From: Eubacteriales bacterium
Lineage (GTDB): Bacteria; Bacillota; Clostridia; Oscillospirales; CAG-272
DNA length: 36,729 nt
Assembly: GCA_045530875.1 (NCBI GenBank)
Contig: JAZSCY010000265.1
Location: 1-36,729 of the forward strand
Reading direction: 5' to 3'
Under the pieces are notes generated by a model. That model was not told the DNA's origin and did no database searches. It was given only the letters and a program-made list of their open reading frames with translations. Shown piece by piece: positions 1 to 36,729 of the stretch. A program made the position numbers and the translations under genes. The first letter of the stretch is position 1. Every line of letters begins with the position of its first letter.

Positions 1-312
1 AGCCGTCACCCCAGCCGTAACCCGAGCCGTAACCCGAGCCGGAACCCGAGCCGGAACCCGAGCCGGAACCCGAGCCGGAACCCGAGCCGGAACCCCGGCC
101 GTCACCCGAGCCGTCACCCCGGCCGTCACCCGAGCCGTCACCCGAGCCGTAACCCGAGCCGTCACCCCAGCCGTAACCCGAGCCGTAACCCGAGCCGGAA
201 CCCGAGCCGGAACCCGAGCCGGAACCCGAGCCGGAACCCGAGCCGGAACCCCGGCCGTCACCCGAGCCGTCACCCCGGCCGTCACCCGAGCCGTAACCCC
301 GGCCGTCACCGA
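1..312. repeat. Nested tandem repeat: 12-nt basic unit (ccgagccggaac and variants) arranged as two 156-nt higher-order copies (1-156, 157-312)
   Basis: Read directly. The string agccgtcaccccagccgtaacccgagccgtaacccgagccggaac at 1-46 recurs at 157-202, and each copy continues with a run of ccgagccggaac units. Confidence 0.95.
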
Positions 313-316
313 TCAT
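1..316 (-). CDS. 5' part of a (Gly-X)n dipeptide-repeat protein, ATG at 316-314, running off the window start (partial; probably continues at 36729)
   Basis: Minus-strand translation gives MIGDGRGYGSGDGRGDGSGDGR(GS)10GYGSGYGWGDGSGYGSGDGSGDGRGDGSGDGR(GS)10GYGSGYGWGDG with no stop. Gly codons alternate ggc/ggt and are invariant, and all unit-to-unit differences fall in the X codons. The start lies 23 nt after the stop of the upstream gene. The RBS is weak. Confidence 0.5.
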   Translation of the reverse strand, partial: MIGDGRGYGSGDGRGDGSGDGRGSGSGSGSGSGSGSGSGSGSGYGSGYGWGDGSGYGSGDGSGDGRGDGSGDGRGSGSGSGSGSGSGSGSGSGSGYGSGYGWGDG

Positions 317-339
317 CAAAAACGCCCTGATTTTCTCGC

Positions 340-630
340 TCAGTTTCGCTTCCACTCTTTTACCTCCCTGATGCTTTCGACAGCCTTGTCCGTACACGGA
401 ATAATCTGGATCGGCTCCATCACAGACATTTCCGGCACAGTAACGGTAAACTGACATCCGCTTGGTTCGGTCGTCCCGTCCATTGCGAGCTGTTCCACAG
501 CGCAGGCGCCAGCCCAGTGCCACAGCTTCCGCACATCCTCCATGACAACTTCCTTGTCGCTTCTTTCCCGGATCCGTCCAAAGAACACGCCGGCATTTGC
601 ACATCTTACGATATAGTATTTGTTATCCAT
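340..630 (-). CDS. Hypothetical early protein (96 aa)
   Basis: ATG at 630 preceded by AAAGGAG. Packed within the early operon. No family recognised. Confidence 0.7.
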   Translation of the reverse strand: MDNKYYIVRCANAGVFFGRIRERSDKEVVMEDVRKLWHWAGACAVEQLAMDGTTEPSGCQFTVTVPEMSVMEPIQIIPCTDKAVESIREVKEWKRN

Positions 631-15850: not shown

Positions 15851-16097
15851 TCCGATCACCTCCCGCCGGCACAAAACAGCCGCAGCCGTCATCATACCTA
15901 TATCCGTCCGGTGTCCCGGGCCGGATAAACCGCTCATCTCCGTCTACGGTTTCATCGTATCCCCATCCGGGATGCACAAAATCCGGTGCCTCCGCAAAAA
16001 CACAGTACGGATATTCCCGCTCTGCCGCTGCCGCTGAGGCAAACCGCTCCGACACATCTTCATGGCAGAACCTGCCCTTAATCAAAAACACCTTCAC
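15837..16097 (-). CDS. Small protein between fibre and endolysin (86 aa)
   Basis: GTG 16097 forms a GTGA overlap with the fibre stop and follows GGGAGGTGG. Confidence 0.5.
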   Translation of the reverse strand: MKVFLIKGRFCHEDVSERFASAAAAEREYPYCVFAEAPDFVHPGWGYDETVDGDERFIRPGTPDGYRYDDGCGCFVPAGGDRNAAV

Positions 16098-17422
16098 GCG
16101 ACCACCTCCCAGGTATAATACTGCAGGATGATCAGACCATGCCCGCCGGATGAAGCGTTGGATCCGCCGCATCCGCCGGCAGCGAGACCGCCGTCACGAC
16201 CAGTAGACCCACCAGCACCGCCGGGACCATAGCCGCCGCCTCCGCCTGCGTTGGATTCGTCCGCATCCCCGCCGGGACCGCCATAGCCGCCGCCTCCTCC
16301 TCCGTTGGATTCGGCACCGTTTCCTCCGTCTCCACCGAGACCGCCGCCGCCTCCGCCCCCGTTGCCGTTGCCGGAACCGATAGAACGTCCGCCGTCTCCG
16401 CCGTCGCCGCCATAGCCGCCGCCTCCGCCTCCGCCGGAACCAGTATTATAACCGGCACCCGGCGAACCGTGGCCCACAAAATCATTGTCCGTGGCAGTTG
16501 TGTCAACACCAGGGCCACCGGAACCGGAACCGGTCGAAGAAACCTTTCCGTTTCCCGCCACCCCGGCACCGCCGCCCGCAGCAGATGAGGCAACGCCGCC
16601 GGAGAAAGCGCCGGCCTTCCCGGAGCCGCCGGATTTTTCTGTTCCGCCTCCGCCTCCGCCTCCATTGGGGCCGCCATTGCCGCCAACAGCCTTGTTTCCG
16701 CCTCCGCCTCCGCCGCCGTCGTCCCCGTTGCCGCCTTTTTTGTAGCTGCAGCCCCCTCCACCGGCTGCACCATCTCCGCCTGCAGTGTTCCCGGCAGATC
16801 CGCCGGATGCCGTCGCCACATCGCCGAATGACGTTGTCCCGCCGTCCATGCCCGGTTTTCCGCCGCAACCAACCACGCAGTCGTAGTGGTCCCTGTCCAG
16901 ATTTGCAACAGTCACAGTCCGCCTGCCGGAACCGCCGCCGCCACCGGAACCGCCGCCGGCACCACCGCCGAACAGCATCAGACGGACATCGCCATGCAGA
17001 CCGGCAGGCTTAAACCATCGGATAGATTCGGTTATGATTTCAGTTTTGAGTACCTCTTTGATGCCGGACATACGCATCCATGTTCTGGTGCTGCCGGATA
17101 CTGCCGTGCAATGATACATGGCACCGCCGGCAATGTATACATCACCGACTTTTGCCTCCAGAGACGATGACGGCGCGCCGGTCCCCACAAAAACCTGACA
17201 AAATCCATTTTTGATGGCCCTGAACGCTCCGTTCGGTGTTTTGTCAGATTCAGCAGTCAGTCCGAACAGTGCCGCCGTGGCATCGGAGAAAAGAGTTGCT
17301 TTGTTGAGTGGAGTACCAACCTGCGTAGGTTCGTCCGCCCACTCCAATTTATAGACATTGGTCTGCCCGGTAACAGGCGTCAGCCTGACCCTGCCCGGGT
17401 ATTTTGATGCTCTGTCAAGCAT
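16094..17422 (-). CDS. Glycine-rich tail fibre / receptor-binding protein (442 aa)
   Basis: The N-terminus TQVGTPLNKATLFSD and the motif GDVYIAGGAMYHCTAVSGSTRTWMRM are typical of Firmicutes phage fibres. About 300 aa of GG(x)GG-type glycine-rich domain follow. ATG 17422 follows AGGTG. Confidence 0.75.
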   Translation of the reverse strand: MLDRASKYPGRVRLTPVTGQTNVYKLEWADEPTQVGTPLNKATLFSDATAALFGLTAESDKTPNGAFRAIKNGFCQVFVGTGAPSSSLEAKVGDVYIAGGAMYHCTAVSGSTRTWMRMSGIKEVLKTEIITESIRWFKPAGLHGDVRLMLFGGGAGGGSGGGGGSGRRTVTVANLDRDHYDCVVGCGGKPGMDGGTTSFGDVATASGGSAGNTAGGDGAAGGGGCSYKKGGNGDDGGGGGGGNKAVGGNGGPNGGGGGGGTEKSGGSGKAGAFSGGVASSAAGGGAGVAGNGKVSSTGSGSGGPGVDTTATDNDFVGHGSPGAGYNTGSGGGGGGGYGGDGGDGGRSIGSGNGNGGGGGGGLGGDGGNGAESNGGGGGGYGGPGGDADESNAGGGGGYGPGGAGGSTGRDGGLAAGGCGGSNASSGGHGLIILQYYTWEVVA

Positions 17423-17831
17423 ACGCCACACCTGCCTCAATCTGGCCGCTGTCAAACCATGTATCCGGTATGGATTCCGCCACCGGTCCCAGCATAGACA
17501 GCATAGCCTCAATTTGATTTGCCATAATAAACGTAAATCGATCCATTGTACCGGGAAGCGGTGGAACCGTGTCAGCAAACCGCAGCGAGTCCCGGAGAGC
17601 CGTCAAAACCCGGATATACTGCGCCATGTCAGACTGCCGGGGTATGTCGTCCGCTGTCCAGTCCTCCCGCAGTGCATCCGGCACGATATAGCCGTAGTCA
17701 GACAGCATCGACCGTATGACATTCGCCGCAGCTCCGACCCGGTTCAGGTCAGAAGCACCATAGGACCCGCGAGCGGATCCGGAGTCCACATCAACCTGTG
17801 TTCTGTCCGTGATCAGATCCGAAAAGCTCAC
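17415..17831 (-). CDS. Tail fibre-associated protein (138 aa)
   Basis: GTG 17831 forms a GTGA overlap and follows GGGAGGTG. ...SYGASDLNRVGAAANVIRSMLSDYGY...EDWTADDIP recalls the N-terminal parts of prophage fibre proteins. Confidence 0.6.
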   Translation of the reverse strand: MSFSDLITDRTQVDVDSGSARGSYGASDLNRVGAAANVIRSMLSDYGYIVPDALREDWTADDIPRQSDMAQYIRVLTALRDSLRFADTVPPLPGTMDRFTFIMANQIEAMLSMLGPVAESIPDTWFDSGQIEAGVAYA

Positions 17832-33136: not shown

Positions 33137-34336
33137 TCAGTTCAGCTTAACAGCCTTCCCGCCCGTGAAATTCTCCCACCGACGGATGATTACATCACAG
33201 TATTTCGGATCAAGCTCCATCATATAACAGGTGCGGTCTAATTGTTCGCAAGCAATCAATGTTGTACCTGTGCCACCAAACAAATCAAGCACACAATCGT
33301 TTTTGTTTGAAAAATTGTTGATATAATTAGAAACAAATTCAACTGAAAATGTAGCTGCGTGAATGTTTGAAAATTCGTTTTTTCTTTGCGGTGAACAATC
33401 AAAAACATTTGAAACCGTTCCCCTAAAATTATTTGTGCCAACAGCGCGAGAATTGTTTTCTTGACTAAAAAATAAAACAAATTCAAATTGCGAGTTCATC
33501 ACTCTTTCGGCCATCGCTGGTGCCGTTGTTGTTTTTCTCCAAATTGCAATGTCGCAAAGTTGTTCTTTGAATTTATGCAAATAATCGCAAAACACCAATT
33601 TGTTTCCCGCCAACATTTGAATATTTATTATCGCATATTTTGAAAACAAAATTCCGTTTTCTGTTGACTTAAATAACAGTTCATCATAATTGTCTAAATC
33701 ATCGTTGTTTGACAGATATTTACTATCCGTTGTATGCGTGTTACCCGACAATTTTTCACTCGCCCCTGCGTTATAAGGCGGAGAAGTAAATTCTATATCC
33801 GCTTTCTTGCCATCCATCAGCATTTCCACGGTTGCCTTATCGGTGCTGTCACCACACATCAGCTTATGTCTGCCCAACCGCCAAATATCGCCCGACTTAG
33901 CAATCGGCTCTGCATCTTCATCCGCCTCTGGTGTCTCATCTTCCACAACCTCGCCGGGAGACGCCAAAAAACTGACCGATTTTGGGAGATCAAACTCAAA
34001 CCCCGACAGATCCAGCTCCGGCAGCTCCTCCGCCAGAAGCCCCAGATCCCACGGTGATTCGTTCGCTTTGTTGTCCTCGATCCGCAGCGCATTCACCTGC
34101 TCCGGCGTCAGATCCTCCACCGATACGCACGGCACCTCCGCCATACCCAGCTTTTTTGCCGCCAAAACCCGGCAGTGCCCGATCACAATAACCCCGTCCC
34201 GGTCAACCACCACCGGCTGGACAAAGCCGTACTGCCGGATAGACTCTGCCACATTGGCAATCTGCCGCCGGTCGTGCTTCTTGGCGTTCTTCTCATAAGG
34301 GATAAGCTCCCCGACGGGTCTGTTCACAACGTCCAT
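33137..34336 (-). CDS. ParB-like nuclease domain fused to a DNA methyltransferase (N6-A/N4-C type, SPPY motif)
   Basis: The N-terminus IPYEKNAKKHDRRQIANVAESIRQYGFVQPVVVD...IGHCRVLAAKKLG is a ParB/Srx fold. The MTase part has LMCGDS, TSPPYN and a C-terminal FGGTGTT SAM-binding loop. Confidence 0.85.
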   Translation of the reverse strand: MDVVNRPVGELIPYEKNAKKHDRRQIANVAESIRQYGFVQPVVVDRDGVIVIGHCRVLAAKKLGMAEVPCVSVEDLTPEQVNALRIEDNKANESPWDLGLLAEELPELDLSGFEFDLPKSVSFLASPGEVVEDETPEADEDAEPIAKSGDIWRLGRHKLMCGDSTDKATVEMLMDGKKADIEFTSPPYNAGASEKLSGNTHTTDSKYLSNNDDLDNYDELLFKSTENGILFSKYAIINIQMLAGNKLVFCDYLHKFKEQLCDIAIWRKTTTAPAMAERVMNSQFEFVLFFSQENNSRAVGTNNFRGTVSNVFDCSPQRKNEFSNIHAATFSVEFVSNYINNFSNKNDCVLDLFGGTGTTLIACEQLDRTCYMMELDPKYCDVIIRRWENFTGGKAVKLN

Positions 34337-34790: not shown

Positions 34791-35513
34791 TCACCCCCAC
34801 TGTTCTGCCATGGCTCTGGCTATGCCGGGAAAGGTTTTGCTTGCCTCTTTTCCGCGCTCTGAATGCGGAAGACATCTTGTTTGATAGTACCAGATCGTCT
34901 GTCGTTTATTTCTTCCTTTGGAATCAATCCACTCGTGATACTTCAATTCCGGTTTTTCTTTGATCTTCGGGACAAGCGGAGGAAGACCCTTCAACCACAA
35001 ACAAGTTGCCTTCTCGGTTTTTTCTTCTTCTGTTGTCGAAATCATCCACGGATGTATGATCTGATCAGGTTTACGGTATAATGTAGACATTACACCAATC
35101 GGATTTTCGATAGCGACTTTTTCACATATTGCATTCACAAAATTCATAAAAAAGTCAGCGGCAGATTCCCGTTTTTCATAACGCTCCAAAGCCTTGTCAC
35201 CGTATTTTTCGATGTTGAACCAACGGTTGGCGGCAAGAGTCAGATATGTACACGGCGGATGAGCTATGATAAGATCCCACTTTCCCATTATTTGATGTTC
35301 TTCCCCATTTGCTGTTATAAACCGTATTCCATATCTGGAAACACCTTTACGGTAAGCATCCGGATTCAGAACCCACAGAACATTCCCTTGTATATGCCAC
35401 TCCGGATGTCCGCCGGAACACGGCTGTATATCACACGAAAACGCATTATGTCCACGTTCCCGGAACGCCGTGCATACTCTCTGCGATTCCTCGCAGGCTA
35501 CCAGTACATTCAT
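34791..35513 (-). CDS. Short C5-cytosine-methyltransferase-like protein (240 aa)
   Basis: AHPPCT (PC motif), ENP (ENV-like) and a C-terminal FPGIARAMAEQW are present. There is no classic FxGxG motif I, so the catalytic status is uncertain. ATG 35513 lies in an ATGA overlap. Confidence 0.55.
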   Translation of the reverse strand: MNVLVACEESQRVCTAFRERGHNAFSCDIQPCSGGHPEWHIQGNVLWVLNPDAYRKGVSRYGIRFITANGEEHQIMGKWDLIIAHPPCTYLTLAANRWFNIEKYGDKALERYEKRESAADFFMNFVNAICEKVAIENPIGVMSTLYRKPDQIIHPWMISTTEEEKTEKATCLWLKGLPPLVPKIKEKPELKYHEWIDSKGRNKRQTIWYYQTRCLPHSERGKEASKTFPGIARAMAEQWG

Positions 35514-35701
35514 TTCTTCCCACCCCGATAAAACGTCTGCCATACCCGCCCGAACCACAGCCGCCAGCGGTAGCAGGTGCAGGCGTCGCCGTTTCCCTCG
35601 ATCATGGTCTTGCACCGGACACAGGGATAATCCGGCCATATGTCCGCCACGGAGTCCCCGCCATGGGAACCACGCAGCAGATCAATCATTTGCTGATCCA
35701 T
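35510..35701 (-). CDS. Small Cys-containing protein (63 aa)
   Basis: ATG 35701 follows GGAGGG. Contains CVRC...C.C. Confidence 0.5.
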   Translation of the reverse strand: MDQQMIDLLRGSHGGDSVADIWPDYPCVRCKTMIEGNGDACTCYRWRLWFGRVWQTFYRGGKK

Positions 35702-36113
35702 ACAGTCCCTCCAGCCTCTCAAAGGCTCGTTTTTTATAGTTTTTGATAGACGAAACGGACAGATCCAGCATATCCGCCGCATCCTCCAGCCGTTTTTTGT
35801 CGAAGAACAGCACCCGGAGCACCGCCTTTTCGTCCGCCGCCAGAACCGTCATCATCTTCTCCAGCGCCGCCCGTTCCGTTTTTTCCGACTCGATCATCCG
35901 GGACACATCCGACTGCAGTTCATCTATTATAGCCGAGGACCGCCCCACCGGATCCCCTGGAACGCCCTTTCCCGTGGGCATACCGTCCAGAGAAGGTGCA
36001 GATGGAGACTTTGCAGAAGCATCCAACTCAACAAGCCGGTCAATCTGCCGGTCAATGTCCCGCGACAGATCCATATACGCATCAAACCGCCGCCTGATCC
36101 TGCCTGTCTCCAT
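35682..36113 (-). CDS. Sigma-70 region-4-like phage transcriptional regulator (candidate late activator, 143 aa)
   Basis: The C-terminus EKAVLRVLFFDKKRLEDAADMLDLSVSSIKNYKKRAFERL is a region-4-type HTH. AAGGAGGAG RBS. Lies upstream of the packaging genes. Confidence 0.6.
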   Translation of the reverse strand: METGRIRRRFDAYMDLSRDIDRQIDRLVELDASAKSPSAPSLDGMPTGKGVPGDPVGRSSAIIDELQSDVSRMIESEKTERAALEKMMTVLAADEKAVLRVLFFDKKRLEDAADMLDLSVSSIKNYKKRAFERLEGLYGSAND

Positions 36114-36131: not shown

Positions 36132-36729
36132 TTATTCCAAAAGCCTCATGATTACGCGTCCGCCGTAGCTTCCGCCGCAGATTTTCACAAATTCTTCCAC
36201 GGTATACGTGTCGTTTTCCAGGTCAATACCGTGATCCGCTGCAAAGGTTTTTCGACCCATCTCACAGCTCCCGGTAAGTCGGTGGTGCCAGGCGAAGAAA
36301 TCAGCCGCCGGATACTTCACGCCCCGTTCATGGCATCTCCAGAACGATGCAATCCGCTCATCCTCCGGCATATCGTCAAACAGCTTATCCTCTGCCGCCT
36401 GTACAGCCTCTGCCAGTGTCTTCCCGTGAGCAAACACATCCCCGCGCTTGACGATGTAGCACGACTGCAGCGTCAGATCCTTGTTGAGTATATAGCCTTT
36501 TGCCGTGTTGCCAAACACAGCCCGTATAATAGTTTGTATCTCATCAACCATATATACAGTATCCCCGCAAAAGCTGGTGATTCCCCAGCCGGAACCCCAG
36601 CCGTAACCCCAGCCGTCACCCCAGCCGTAACCCGAGCCGTAACCCGAGCCGGAACCCGGGCCGGAACCCGAGCCGGGACCCGAGCCGGAACCCGGGCCGG
36701 AACCCCGGCCGGCACCCGGGCCGTCACCC
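36132..36729 (-). CDS. 3' part of the (Gly-X)n repeat protein: repeat tail plus a 139-aa globular C-terminal domain (5'-partial at the window end)
   Basis: The frame of the ORF-track ORF 36132-36551 stays open upstream to the window end. It reads ...GDGPGAGRGSGPGSGSGPGSGSGPGSGSGYGSGYGWGDGWGYGWGSGWGITSFCGDTVY-MVDEIQ... There is no good RBS before ATG 36551. Confidence 0.55.
   Translation of the reverse strand, partial: GDGPGAGRGSGPGSGSGPGSGSGPGSGSGYGSGYGWGDGWGYGWGSGWGITSFCGDTVYMVDEIQTIIRAVFGNTAKGYILNKDLTLQSCYIVKRGDVFAHGKTLAEAVQAAEDKLFDDMPEDERIASFWRCHERGVKYPAADFFAWHHRLTGSCEMGRKTFAADHGIDLENDTYTVEEFVKICGGSYGGRVIMRLLE
36582..36729. repeat. Third, diverged partial copy of the 156-nt higher-order repeat seen at 1-312
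   Basis: 36611-36729 aligns with 1-119 apart from a few a-to-g or t-to-g changes (cccgag to cccggg, ccggaac to ccgggac, ccgtcac to ccggcac). Confidence 0.9.

Follow-up and report, generated by a model that had tools for sequence, protein, structure and literature searches.

Both ends of the window, the whole 36,729-nt stretch of DNA analyzed here, carry a tandem repeat that encodes glycine at every second residue on the minus strand. Do the two repeats belong to one gene, and what would a strictly alternating (Gly-X)n polymer do in a phage? A sequence-only reading of this DNA had proposed a long Gly-X tract joined to a small globular domain. The protein-coding tract and its junction with such a domain are upheld. 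The sequence-level part of the repeat observation holds, and the observation as a whole is partly confirmed.

The (Gly-X)n array and its gene

The array is composed of two parts. The 5' part (1..310, minus strand), identified by TRF, translation, and repeat comparison, contains 51 dipeptides and a broken codon. TRF counts 25.8 copies of a 12-nt unit over 1-310 (score 396); the frame from the ATG at 316 runs through 51 consecutive Gly-X dipeptides down to base 1. The 3' part (36582..36729, minus strand), identified by TRF and translation, contains 24 dipeptides and a GGA and is reported as a second 12-nt array at 36583-36723 (11.8 copies). It is a diverged copy with Pro, Ala, and Trp at X, is in frame with the C-terminal domain, and passes without a stop into a 139-aa ORF (36132-36551).

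The sense-strand template is ggt-NNc-ggc-NNg. The Gly codons alternate between GGT and GGC without exception (38 and 37), the last one being GGA. The third positions of the X codons alternate between C and G, also without exception, and all variation falls in X-codon positions 1-2. This codon-by-codon count agrees with the sequence-only reading, which had described alternating ggc/ggt at every second codon and differences in X only. The higher-order unit of 156 nt, or 52 codons, is also found: window 1-138 is identical to 157-294, and a third copy, with Pro, Ala, and Trp substitutions, sits at the window end. Within the array are two 65-nt runs of perfect 12-nt periodicity and (GS)10 blocks. 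The tract was correctly set apart from collagen. Its period is 2 residues (6 nt) in 51 + 24 consecutive units, and the Gly at every third residue of collagen-like (Gly-X-Y)n is not observed.

The gene probably starts at GTG 355-353, judging from the sequence and its relatives. The ATG at 316, originally taken as the start, is probably an internal Met. A Shine-Dalgarno-like GGGAGG (363..368, minus strand) can be read in the sequence 7 nt before the in-frame GTG, within the end of the upstream DUF6948 gene. P0001, a 97%-identical relative, starts at the homologous GTG (METKLSEKIREFL...), as does the gene of L001, a related locus. From GTG 355, the window protein begins with MEAKLSEKIRAFL and continues into the in-register Gly-X tract, the N-terminal arrangement of the family. 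The probable start and an N-terminal amphipathic helix, MEAKLSEKIRAFLMI, occupy 311..355 (minus strand; sequence, relatives, and AF2). Across 156 N-termini, the residues of the helix motif [IV]-x-x-[WF]-[LI] are present at 87%, 93%, and 86%. In the AF2 model of full-length P0001, residues 2-13 are helical, with a pLDDT of ~72 for the helix, a value that says nothing about its binding partner; the helix may serve for docking. The conserved helix had been overlooked.

By sequence comparison, the repeats at the two window ends belong to a single gene that the contig boundaries cut in two: L001 (92-94% nucleotide identity) is colinear across the junction. Window 1915 to 201 corresponds to L001 8442-10154, and, on the other side, window 36692 to 35517 corresponds to L001 10046-11221. 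Both halves of the array are in the Gly-X frame; one carries the start, and the other carries the C-domain. The continuous frame claimed from ATG 316 to ATG 36551 requires the window to be circular, and joining its ends directly shifts the frame by -1 nt (GGC T|GG GTG ACG), with translation stopping early. The sequence-only reading had staked its case on an uninterrupted frame between these two codons. A frameshift is formally present there, though via an unverified assembly junction and not in verified sequence.

The first 119 nt and the last 119 nt of the window match with 5 mismatches. Merging them restores the frame and gives a protein of 277 aa with 57 dipeptides. Depending on the junction model, the tract is 114-154 aa, or 57 to at least 77 dipeptides, and the proposed length of roughly 160 residues is therefore assembly-dependent. 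A plain join that misses the frame by 1 nt and a perfect 156-nt duplicate that reaches window base 1 make the copy number unreliable. The exact tract length is likewise not dependable, as the assembly broke within the repeat. Whether the tract is unusually long would depend on which junction model holds. For independent assemblies of the phage, IMG/VR held no close relative and the JGI metagenomes no exact word match; a phage collection search returned two distant unannotated records only, and exact-protein look-ups returned no record.

The great length and the perfect 156-nt repeat could themselves be assembly artefacts, with a true array that is shorter (37 aa as in L001, or at most ~57 dipeptides). 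The chance of this is a little short of even. It could arise through a de Bruijn loop, imperfectly overlapping ends left untrimmed, or both. The perfect duplicate stops precisely where the contig does, which may reflect an assembly loop; the 65-nt runs, the frameshifted plain join, and the frame-restoring merge of the ends point the same way. The near-perfect higher-order repeat is found in the window and in none of the other loci compared. Moreover, 11/83 related contigs end inside the tract, and one contig has an N gap there. However, a period-156 graph cycle at large k requires at least about two real tandem copies, and the most conservative merge still leaves at least 57 dipeptides, which makes it 3-fold longer than in L001. 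Elsewhere, tracts of 95-103 aa are known intact, and BFVD includes a 352-aa family member. An artefact of this kind would touch the length alone and leave the gene and its Gly-X tract unaffected.

The tract breaks short-read assemblies, in these 11/83 related contigs and in the window, and can yield false circular junctions; gene calls in the family are therefore often truncated. Family members without a tract are present in databases, and many of them may be truncated gene calls from contigs broken in the array.

Composition and length variation of the tract

Across 72 loci, the X residues are 39% Ser, 28% Tyr, and 20% Asp, with less than 1% Ala. The median aliphatic and basic fractions of X are both 0. 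Aromatic residues occur in 71/72 tracts at a median of 33% of X, and the net charge is about -19 per 100 X residues. Some tracts differ, such as the charge-neutral L083 (GDGRGDGR) and the Asn/His-rich L081. RTX beta-rolls (GGxGxDxUx), which have a nonapeptide period and a conserved hydrophobic position, were considered and rejected, the tract having a period of 2 and a median aliphatic fraction of 0.

The codons are homogeneous, with a single codon for each residue within a tract. Over 70 loci, the median dominant-codon fraction for G, S, Y, and D is 1.0 in the tract versus 0.43-0.67 in the C-domain of the same genes. Entropies along the hexamer are 0, 0, 0.13, 0.92, 1.11, and 0.17 bits (72 loci). 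The templates differ by lineage (ggt-NNc-ggc-NNg, ggc-NNg, or ggt-NNc), and all encode Gly-X. If this reading holds, the tract is a clear case of concerted repeat evolution, with variation confined to two informative codon positions. Linker plus slippage does not fully account for the contrast between scarce synonymous and abundant X variation.

Tract lengths in the family range from 5 to ~103 aa, with ~99 aa in L013, and in short-read assemblies they appear to have a ceiling of ~300 nt. Lengths were compared in 602 pairs whose C-domains are at least 93% identical. The tract differs in length in 571 of these, by up to 56 aa, which supports the earlier suggestion of a copy-number hotspot. The difference is an even number of residues in 540/571 (95%), in agreement with the predicted steps of 6 nt. 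For example, the tracts of L087 and L088 are 35 and 11 aa, and that of L001 is 37 aa versus at least 114 in the window. Homologues keep the Gly register, e.g., 40 in register and 0 out.

The protein family, its DUF6948 partner, and the C-terminal domain

The Gly-X protein is not an orphan. Sequence searches place it in a large unnamed family, with at least 600 clusters, whose members occur in temperate phages of gut Clostridia. They found 603 homologues (lowest E-value 3.6e-95), and the family has 628 representatives at the 50% identity level. Of the best 150 representatives, 102 have a tract of 9 aa or more. If the assignment holds, the family is widespread in phages of the dominant human and animal gut Clostridia, and is named in no curated library.

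The DUF6948 gene (PF22253; 340..630, minus strand) encodes 96 aa and was identified by Pfam (E = 2.7e-22) and by the neighbor census. Its stop codon (342-340) overlaps the start of the Gly-X gene by 16 nt. A DUF6948 homologue is located directly upstream in 65/65 related loci, with a 13-nt overlap in 53. This neighbor is obligate and translationally coupled, and it had been overlooked. The partner matches just Pfam DUF6948, and no paper mentioning DUF6948 was found in the literature; nor was one found on phage Gly-X or Gly-Tyr repeat proteins.

Downstream of the gene is a sigma-70 region-4/phrog_36 regulator (35682..36113, minus strand; profile matches, given for context only). It has the same order in L001 and is not conserved family-wide. 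Downstream neighbors are heterogeneous (148 in the census), and ordinary replication and recombination genes dominate. Genes of the DNA methyltransferase, Mom, Lar, or PAPS-reductase type are frequent among the neighbors. A Gly/Ser/Cys-rich RiPP/TOMM precursor was rejected: no YcaO/cyclodehydratase-type families occur among the 148 downstream neighbors or in the locus contexts inspected, and the tract is internal and followed by a folded domain.

The conserved C-terminal domain (ITSFCGD...RLLE) and the stop codon occupy 36132..36581 (minus strand; profile and structure searches, alignment). The domain is ~140 aa and is predicted to be a beta-meander with a helical bundle, modeled in P0001 with pLDDT > 88. 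Its invariant residues are H, K, W-H, T, S-C, and R (FAHG...WHHRLTGSCEMGR). The window protein contains these residues and the family motifs FAHGxTL...WHHRLTGSCxxGR. The sequence-only reading had begun a 139-aa domain at ATG 36551; a globular domain is indeed there, but its fold begins ~10 residues upstream.

The same reading could not place the domain in a phage family, and Pfam, PHROGs, NCBIfam, and PADLOC searches with the C-domain and full-length homologues likewise gave nothing usable. When 40 diverse C-domains were scanned permissively against Pfam, only scattered sub-threshold matches came up (LAP1_C, DUF5678, and UPF0150-like). Sequence-profile searches of the PDB returned engineered GS linkers in fusion constructs, or nothing. 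An alignment of the FAHGxTLxEA segment with uS5m/DRBM was weak (E = 0.08) and was set aside, and hhalign shows DUF6948 and the C-domain to be unrelated. With Foldseek, the confident C-domain model reached no better than E = 0.26 and TM < 0.25 in the PDB. Its BFVD matches were limited to members of the family and to remote relatives without names, one of which is auto-named 'Lamprin'. The modeled fold thus appears to be absent among solved structures. A Tyr/Asp/Ser-rich periodic tract, a C-domain with no detectable relative among solved structures, and an obligate DUF6948 partner would be an unusual trio.

Some representatives depart from this architecture. P0217 joins an ArdC ssDNA-binding N-domain to the C-domain (E = 1.2e-17), is known from a single 3-kb Logan contig, and is the only informative representative of odd architecture. 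P0150 is an apparent chimera whose parts meet at a shared 'PCY'.

The tract as a proposed disordered tether, and the alternatives

The tract is probably intrinsically disordered and would act as a floppy linker. In the AF2 model of full-length P0001, tract residues 17-48 have pLDDT < 50 and are without secondary structure. The call relies on AF2 confidence together with composition, and AF2 is weak evidence for repeats. Of the roles first suggested, a disordered module, a spacer, or a length-variable element is the right class of idea because the tract is predicted to be disordered; phase separation, also raised there, is speculative.

The account that we favor, and hold to be fairly probable as a whole, is a slippage-driven, disordered acidic/aromatic tether in one split gene that is made with DUF6948. 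The window would be a complete temperate siphovirus-type genome from a gut Clostridia host, with an assembly that broke in, or circularized through, the repeat of this gene. From GTG 355, the protein would be composed of an amphipathic helix of 13-15 aa, a strict (Gly-X)n tract, and the C-domain of ~140 aa. The tract would be a Tyr-rich, acidic spacer joining helix and domain. Its DNA would behave as a microsatellite with a 6- or 12-nt unit, gaining and losing whole dipeptides through slippage or unequal recombination. Selection would keep Gly at every second residue and limit X to Ser/Tyr/Asp-type residues, excluding aliphatic and basic ones. The protein would be made together with, and presumably work with, the DUF6948 protein from the overlapping upstream gene, perhaps in physical contact with it.

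Several known systems share parts of this design. The R/SD regions of the staphylococcal Clf/Sdr proteins are strict dipeptide repeats of tens to hundreds of residues that act as spacers; they are encoded by a short DNA repeat of hypervariable copy number. As here, their length varies between strains, but they belong to secreted, LPXTG-anchored, glycosylated surface proteins. The Gly-X gene, in contrast, lies in a phage early region and encodes Gly-X with Tyr. By inspection, its protein has no signal peptide or LPXTG, only the N-terminal 13-aa helix and a C-terminus ending in ...IMRLLE. The disordered linker of SSB tethers an acidic tip, and the tract would similarly tie a short terminal motif, a putative interaction site, to a folded domain. 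Natural linkers are seldom strictly periodic or so long, however, and 28% Tyr with 20% Asp is unusual. The (GS)10 blocks of the window are identical to engineered (Gly-Ser)n laboratory linkers, the sole PDB matches of the family profile. If the reading holds, the tracts of the family, from 5 to > 100 residues, amount to a natural length series of a 'GS-linker with stickers' and could show how selection acts on the length and composition of disordered linkers.

The EBNA1 GAr of Epstein-Barr virus is a long, strain-variable, Gly-based low-complexity viral repeat that lies between an N-terminal part and a folded C-domain, and it has highly biased, repetitive codons (PMC5504353, PMC3820569). Unlike the tract, GAr mixes Gly and Ala irregularly and lacks aromatic and acidic residues. 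Its known roles in proteasome evasion, G4 translational throttling, and immune evasion have no obvious bacterial equivalent. Here, unlike in GAr, aromatics adjoin the domain and RNA folding is unremarkable.

Strict period 2 and 28% Tyr exceed what a generic linker needs, and the tract could instead adopt beta-rich or self-associating states. As a 'stickers and spacers' domain (Tyr/Trp/Phe in Gly/Ser/Asp), it would form a condensate, hydrogel, or silk-like beta assembly, e.g., a scaffold for a replication/recombination focus, tuned by repeat number. This is an unlikely reading. The near-universal aromatics, the exclusion of aliphatics, and the location of the cassette among replication and recombination genes are consistent with it. 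The FUS low-complexity (LC) region is Gln-rich, nearly uncharged, and not strictly periodic. FUS-type [G/S]Y[G/S] LC regions share with the tract Gly/Ser richness, spaced Tyr, recurrent GYG/SYG-type triplets, absence of aliphatics, and predicted disorder; the tract differs in lacking Gln, in being ~19-20% acidic, and in its exact period of 2. The fibroin heavy chain of Bombyx mori is a long strict (Gly-X)n in which X is mostly Ala, then Ser, giving beta-sheet stacking. It shares the strict alternation and an X that includes Ser and Tyr. Here, in contrast, Ala is < 1% and Asp is 20%, so that X is not dominated by the small Ala/Ser residues of beta-stacking, and AF2 predicts no strands. Tract length is also free to vary between 5 and > 100 aa, in a protein that is no secreted structural fiber. 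Aromatic-rich low-complexity regions (LCRs) are unusual in prokaryotes and phages, the largest phage LCR in one survey being 115 aa, with aromatics depleted (PMC6821194). Against self-association, ~20% Asp and the net negative charge disfavor homotypic contacts without a counter-ion or partner. Some family members make do with tracts of only 5-11 aa, and AF2 predicts no tract structure.

A bolder extension is that the DUF6948/Gly-X cassette is a phage early-function module not recognized before. The naturally evolved acidic/aromatic tract, tunable by slippage, could be a multivalent scaffold (condensate or gel) or a nucleic-acid mimic, with repeat number as a fast-evolving 'dial', a contingency locus that acts on the material properties of the protein rather than as an ON/OFF switch. 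The C-domain could be a new-fold His/Cys enzyme or metal-binding domain that the tract brings to, or concentrates at, replication or defense targets in gut Clostridia. This reading is speculative and unlikely.

The DUF6948 and Gly-X proteins could also be a toxin-antitoxin-like or anti-defense pair, with the acidic, aromatic tract as a nucleic-acid mimic or decoy. Two small overlapping genes in prophage early regions, neighbors such as DNA methyltransferases and Mom, and the ArdC N-domain of P0217 are in keeping with this. With its invariant His, His, Cys, Lys, and Arg, the C-domain may contain a catalytic or metal site. Yet PADLOC, Pfam, and NCBIfam gave no significant match, the ArdC-N fusion is one contig, ordinary replication and recombination genes dominate the census, and tracts such as those of L083 and L081 are charge-neutral or Asn/His-rich. 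Such a pair is improbable.

Slippery Gly-rich signals of AAA+ proteases are known from EBNA1 Gly-Ala repeats, NF-kB p105, and Caulobacter DnaX. By analogy, degradation from the N-helix would stall at the tract, and the C-domain would be released or protected. The layout fits, with a Gly-rich tract between an N-terminal peptide and a stable folded domain, and Gly-rich sequence beside a folded domain causes failed unfolding by ClpXP and the proteasome (PMC6677533). However, such a stop calls for ~7 residues free of large side chains next to the domain, one Tyr 3-5 residues from the domain restores the grip of ClpX (PMC6677533), and Tyr, Phe, or Trp is present in the last 7 tract residues at 146/214 tract ends, with a large hydrophobic or aromatic residue at positions 2-6 at 151/214. 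Furthermore, ~10-20 residues suffice for such a signal, not 50-150, and neither Tyr nor Asp is necessary. A protease signal is thus very improbable.

Least probable of all is that the repeat works as nucleic acid, i.e., as a G-quadruplex/hairpin translation throttle, a recombination/packaging signal, or an ON/OFF frameshift switch: codon homogeneity and invariant third positions beyond the demands of protein-level selection, sense-strand G-runs every 6 nt, and the precedent of the EBNA1 GAr mRNA (PMC5504353) favor it, but dinucleotide shuffles of the array RNA fold just as well (z = 0.17), the lineage-specific templates all encode Gly-X, 95% of length differences keep frame and dipeptide register, the opposite of a frameshift switch, and the tract invariably lies between the same two protein parts.

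The Gly-X gene across the window ends

The Gly-X gene is a minus-strand gene split over the two ends of the window. Its product is composed of an N-terminal helix, a tract in which Gly alternates with a second residue (X), and a C-terminal domain (C-domain). Tandem Repeats Finder identifies a 12-nt array at 1-310 (25.8 copies, 88% matches, score 396) and, near the other end of the window (36583-36723), another with 11.8 copies and a score of 170. On the minus strand, the first encodes 51 uninterrupted Gly-X dipeptides in frame with ATG 316, and the second encodes 24 more, from which a 139-aa minus-strand ORF (36132-36551) is reached stop-free via ...GWGITSFCGDTVYMVDEIQ.... The Gly codons strictly alternate between GGT and GGC (38 + 37, plus a single terminal GGA), the third position of the X codons alternates between C and G with zero exceptions, and all unit-to-unit differences fall at X-codon positions 1 and 2. 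The sequence-only reading described this pattern accurately, and the pattern is far beyond chance. The 156-nt higher-order repeat it proposed is real, with a lag-156 identity of 97.4% and an exact duplicate of 1-138 at 157-294. Because the period is 2, the tract is not collagen-like, as that reading also held. The window's own tract is atypical in composition (Arg 8%, Trp 8%, and Pro in the end copy).

Originally read as a single continuous ORF, the locus holds up as one gene but not as the sequence stands. The long ORF is present only when the window is treated as a circle, and a plain circular join is 1 nt out of frame (...GGC T/GG GTG ACG..., where GGC TGG GGT GAC is needed) and leads to a premature stop. 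A relative, the ENA contig L001 (92-94% nucleotide identity), is colinear over the junction: window 1915 to 201 corresponds to L001 8442-10154, and window 36692 to 35517 to L001 10046-11221. In both, DUF6948 is followed by the Gly-X gene and then by a sigma-like regulator. This colinearity indicates that the two window ends are truly adjacent and are halves of one gene. Apart from the junction, the window is complete as the genome of a temperate siphovirus-type phage: genes for terminase, portal, head morphogenesis protein, tape measure, and integrase are all present.

The perfect 156-nt duplicate stops exactly at window base 1. The first and last 119 nt of the window differ by 5 mismatches, and merging them regains the frame, as does an 11-nt end overlap with 1 mismatch. 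The assembly thus broke inside the array or was circularised through it. The 119-nt overlap gives a protein of 277 aa with 57 Gly-X dipeptides, the 11-nt overlap 313 aa with 75, and the plain join, once 1 nt is added, 317 aa with 77. Because the implied protein varies with the junction model, the copy number is unreliable, and the "two perfect copies" may partly be an assembly loop. Inflation by assembly is likely at least in part, and it concerns length alone. The polymer of roughly 160 residues first proposed for this phage rests on the unreliable junction. Among 83 related genome-collection contigs, 11 terminate within the tract, and one more has an N gap there, so assembly fragility is general in the family and not specific to the window.

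ATG 316, initially taken as the start, is probably an internal Met codon. A GTG at 355 is in frame and is preceded 7 nt upstream by GGGAGG. The 97%-identical gene of L001 (protein P0001) starts at the homologous GTG with the N-terminus METKLSEKIREFL..., and a similar opening segment of 12-16 aa is found in nearly all relatives. From GTG 355, the window protein begins MEAKLSEKIRAFLMIGDG....

The DUF6948 partner and the C-domain family

The gene directly upstream encodes DUF6948 (340-630; PF22253, E = 2.7e-22). The Gly-X start codon lies inside its 3' end, with an overlap of 16 nt in the window (340-355, GTG). In most relatives, the Gly-X ATG is formed within the conserved DUF6948 ...E-W-K(R)-stop codons (GA[A TG]G AA...), and the overlap is 13 nt in 53 of 65 loci. 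This deeply conserved geometry implies probable translational coupling of the two genes. A DUF6948 homologue is the immediate upstream overlapping gene in 65/65 assessable related loci, and the arrangement is also seen in three independently examined contexts. Genes downstream are heterogeneous, i.e., DnaB, RecT, SSB, YqaJ, Lar, HTH regulators, and occasionally sigma-like regulators. With a constant upstream partner and varying downstream neighbours, the unit is a two-gene cassette set within early replication/recombination regions. DUF6948 has 433 homologues, which are single-domain, ~96 aa, and unnamed. It has no relative in the PDB by sequence and no relationship to the C-domain, and no paper mentioning it was found. 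In the window, the cassette and regulator are closely followed by two minus-strand DNA methyltransferase genes (33137-34336 and 34791-35639), of which one encodes a ParB-N + N6_N4 methylase fusion (phrog_498) and the second matches phrog_757.

The C-domain has 603 homologues in a 90%-clustered database and, at 50% identity, 628 representatives, of which 373 reach an E-value ≤1e-10. All of them are unnamed and without a Pfam domain. The sequence-only reading could place the protein in no phage family, and the C-domain indeed goes unrecognised by Pfam, PHROGs, NCBIfam, and PADLOC. The usual architecture is N-terminal helix, tract, and C-domain, and the tract reaches 9 aa or more in 102 of the 150 best representatives. 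Many tract-less entries begin precisely at internal Met positions and may be truncated calls on contigs broken in the array. According to record titles, hosts are mainly gut Oscillospiraceae, Acutalibacteraceae, Faecousia, Ruminococcus, and Lachnospiraceae MAGs. Cassette contigs are also found in MAGs far from Clostridia, namely Paceibacterota (L014, L042), Methanobacteriaceae (L080), Bacteroidales (L026, L028, L045, L057), and Bifidobacteriaceae (L072), most likely through mis-binning of phage contigs and not true host range.

AlphaFold2, using a 30-sequence alignment, models the C-domain as a five-strand beta-meander followed by six helices (mean pLDDT 93.3). The globular domain proposed from ATG 36551 is thus predicted to be folded, but its first strands are built from residues upstream of that codon, and initiation there would truncate the fold. 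Foldseek finds no match among solved structures (best E = 0.26, TM < 0.25); its matches in BFVD are a family member of 352 aa that carries the automatic name "Lamprin" (56% identity) and a few remote relatives without names. In a diverse alignment, H51, K65, W97, H98, T102, S104, C105, and R109 are invariant, and C40 is almost so. This pattern fits a putative catalytic or metal site.

Three family members depart from the usual architecture. P0191 (331 aa) has two Gly-X tracts flanking a hydrophobic Trp/Met-rich segment, ...SLVQYGNGAVWMAMGASGGSKAWLWMGSILASMARSG..., that may be a membrane-active insertion. P0150 (190 aa) has a methyltransferase-like N-terminus (...LLIAHPPC) joined to the C-domain exactly at the common "PCY" motif, a junction that probably arose as an artefact at microhomology, during assembly or by recombination. 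In P0217, from a 2999-nt Logan contig, an ArdC N-domain replaces the helix and tract and is fused straight to the C-domain.

Turnover and proposed role of the tract

In a full-length model of P0001, the helix spans residues 2-13 (pLDDT ~72) and the C-domain is confident, whereas tract residues 17-48 have pLDDT < 50 and lack secondary structure. The full-length profile matches only engineered (GS)n linkers of fusion constructs among PDB sequences. Intact tracts range from 5 to ~103 aa (~99 aa in L013), and the Gly register is strictly kept in the family, e.g., 40 in-register Gly and 0 out. Among 602 protein pairs with C-domains at least 93% identical, the N-terminal part is unequal in length in 571, by up to 56 aa, and 540 of these differences are even. 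L087 and L088 have common flanks and tracts of 35 vs. 11 aa. Length polymorphism in relatives thus proceeds in multiples of 6 nt, and the suggested disordered, length-variable spacer agrees with both the model and the relatives.

The median dominant-codon fraction in the tracts of 70 loci is 1.0 for Gly, Ser, Tyr, and Asp, and 0.43-0.67 in the C-domains of the same genes. Codon templates differ by lineage: ggt-NNc-ggc-NNg (window, L001), ggc-NNg (L002), and ggt-NNc (L003). Mean entropy over the hexamer positions is 0, 0, 0.13, 0.92, 1.11, and 0.17 bits (72 loci). Since codons are near-uniform and entropy is low outside X-codon positions 1 and 2, the DNA of the arrays is renewed more quickly than synonymous changes build up, most likely by slippage or unequal exchange. 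The two informative X-codon positions keep differences despite this turnover. X is Ser (39%), Tyr (28%), or Asp (20%), with median aliphatic and basic fractions of 0, aromatic residues in 71/72 tracts, and a median net charge of about -19 per 100 X residues. Such a composition points to selection on X identity beyond mere tolerance. It is also unusual, given that a survey found prokaryotic low-complexity regions (LCRs) to be strongly depleted of aromatic residues and the longest LCR in 102 phage proteomes to be 115 aa (PMC6821194). Some lineages have replaced X sets: charge-balanced Asp/Arg instead of Ser/Tyr/Asp in the L083 3001-3435 upstream tract (GDGRGDGRGYGR), Asn/Tyr/His in L081, and, for L010 and L058, Trp/Glu or Trp/Ala. 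All of them retain an aromatic residue.

On the best-supported reading, the tract is an acidic/aromatic tether or spacer that is predicted to be disordered and is free to vary in length. It would join the conserved amphipathic N-terminal helix (motif [IV]-x-x-[WF]-[LI], presence 87%, 93%, and 86%) to the new-fold C-domain, in a protein that would be co-translated with DUF6948 and might interact with it. Self-association, by "stickers and spacers" or silk-like assembly, fits the periodic Tyr but is unlikely, given 20% Asp, the existence of functional homologues whose tracts are 5-11 aa long, and no predicted structure. It is doubtful that the two genes form a toxin-antitoxin or anti-defence pair with the tract as nucleic-acid mimic. 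The ArdC fusion in P0217 (PF08401, E = 1.2e-17, the ssDNA-binding N-domain of an anti-restriction factor) is a hint, though a single occurrence, and DNA-modification neighbours are frequent; however, there are zero matches to defence or anti-defence models, and ordinary replication genes dominate the neighbour census. Somewhat less probable still is that the tract serves AAA+ proteases as a slippery stop signal. ClpXP does stall on Gly-rich tails beside folded domains, but a single Tyr at positions 3-5 is enough to restore its grip (PMC6677533), and in 146 of 214 tract ends the last 7 residues before the domain include an aromatic one. A nucleic-acid-level function is the least probable, as array RNA folds like its shuffles (z = 0.17), codon templates differ among lineages, and 95% of indels keep the frame.

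The tract is of a known kind, a hypervariable low-complexity repeat linker, and sits in a widespread, uncharacterised phage protein family whose C-domain has a new fold and whose DUF partner is obligate. What is striking is the tract pattern and its evolutionary signature, and that the family is large. Likeness to silk fibroin is limited to Gly-X alternation. FUS-type LC domains share Gly/Ser with spaced Tyr, but the tract is acidic and without Gln. Staphylococcal Ser-Asp repeats are also hypervariable dipeptide spacers, though the Gly-X protein is not a surface protein. The EBNA1 Gly-Ala repeat is likewise long, variable, Gly-based, and within a viral protein.

Other features of the phage genome

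Four 22-nt direct repeats (GTCCATTTTYTGGACATYCCAT), each with a GTCCA...TGGAC palindrome, are located at 2240-2385. They adjoin an AT-rich stretch (2240-2300) and lie inside or next to a minus-strand ORF (1916-2701). This arrangement is like that of an operator array or of a lambda-type iteron origin situated in a replication gene.

A 494-aa minus-strand ORF (16094-17578) has no match in PHROGs. Its C-terminal half has irregular poly-Gly (GGGGGG and GGDGGNG runs), unlike the strict Gly-X style. Being downstream of the tape-measure gene, it may encode a tail fibre or receptor-binding protein.
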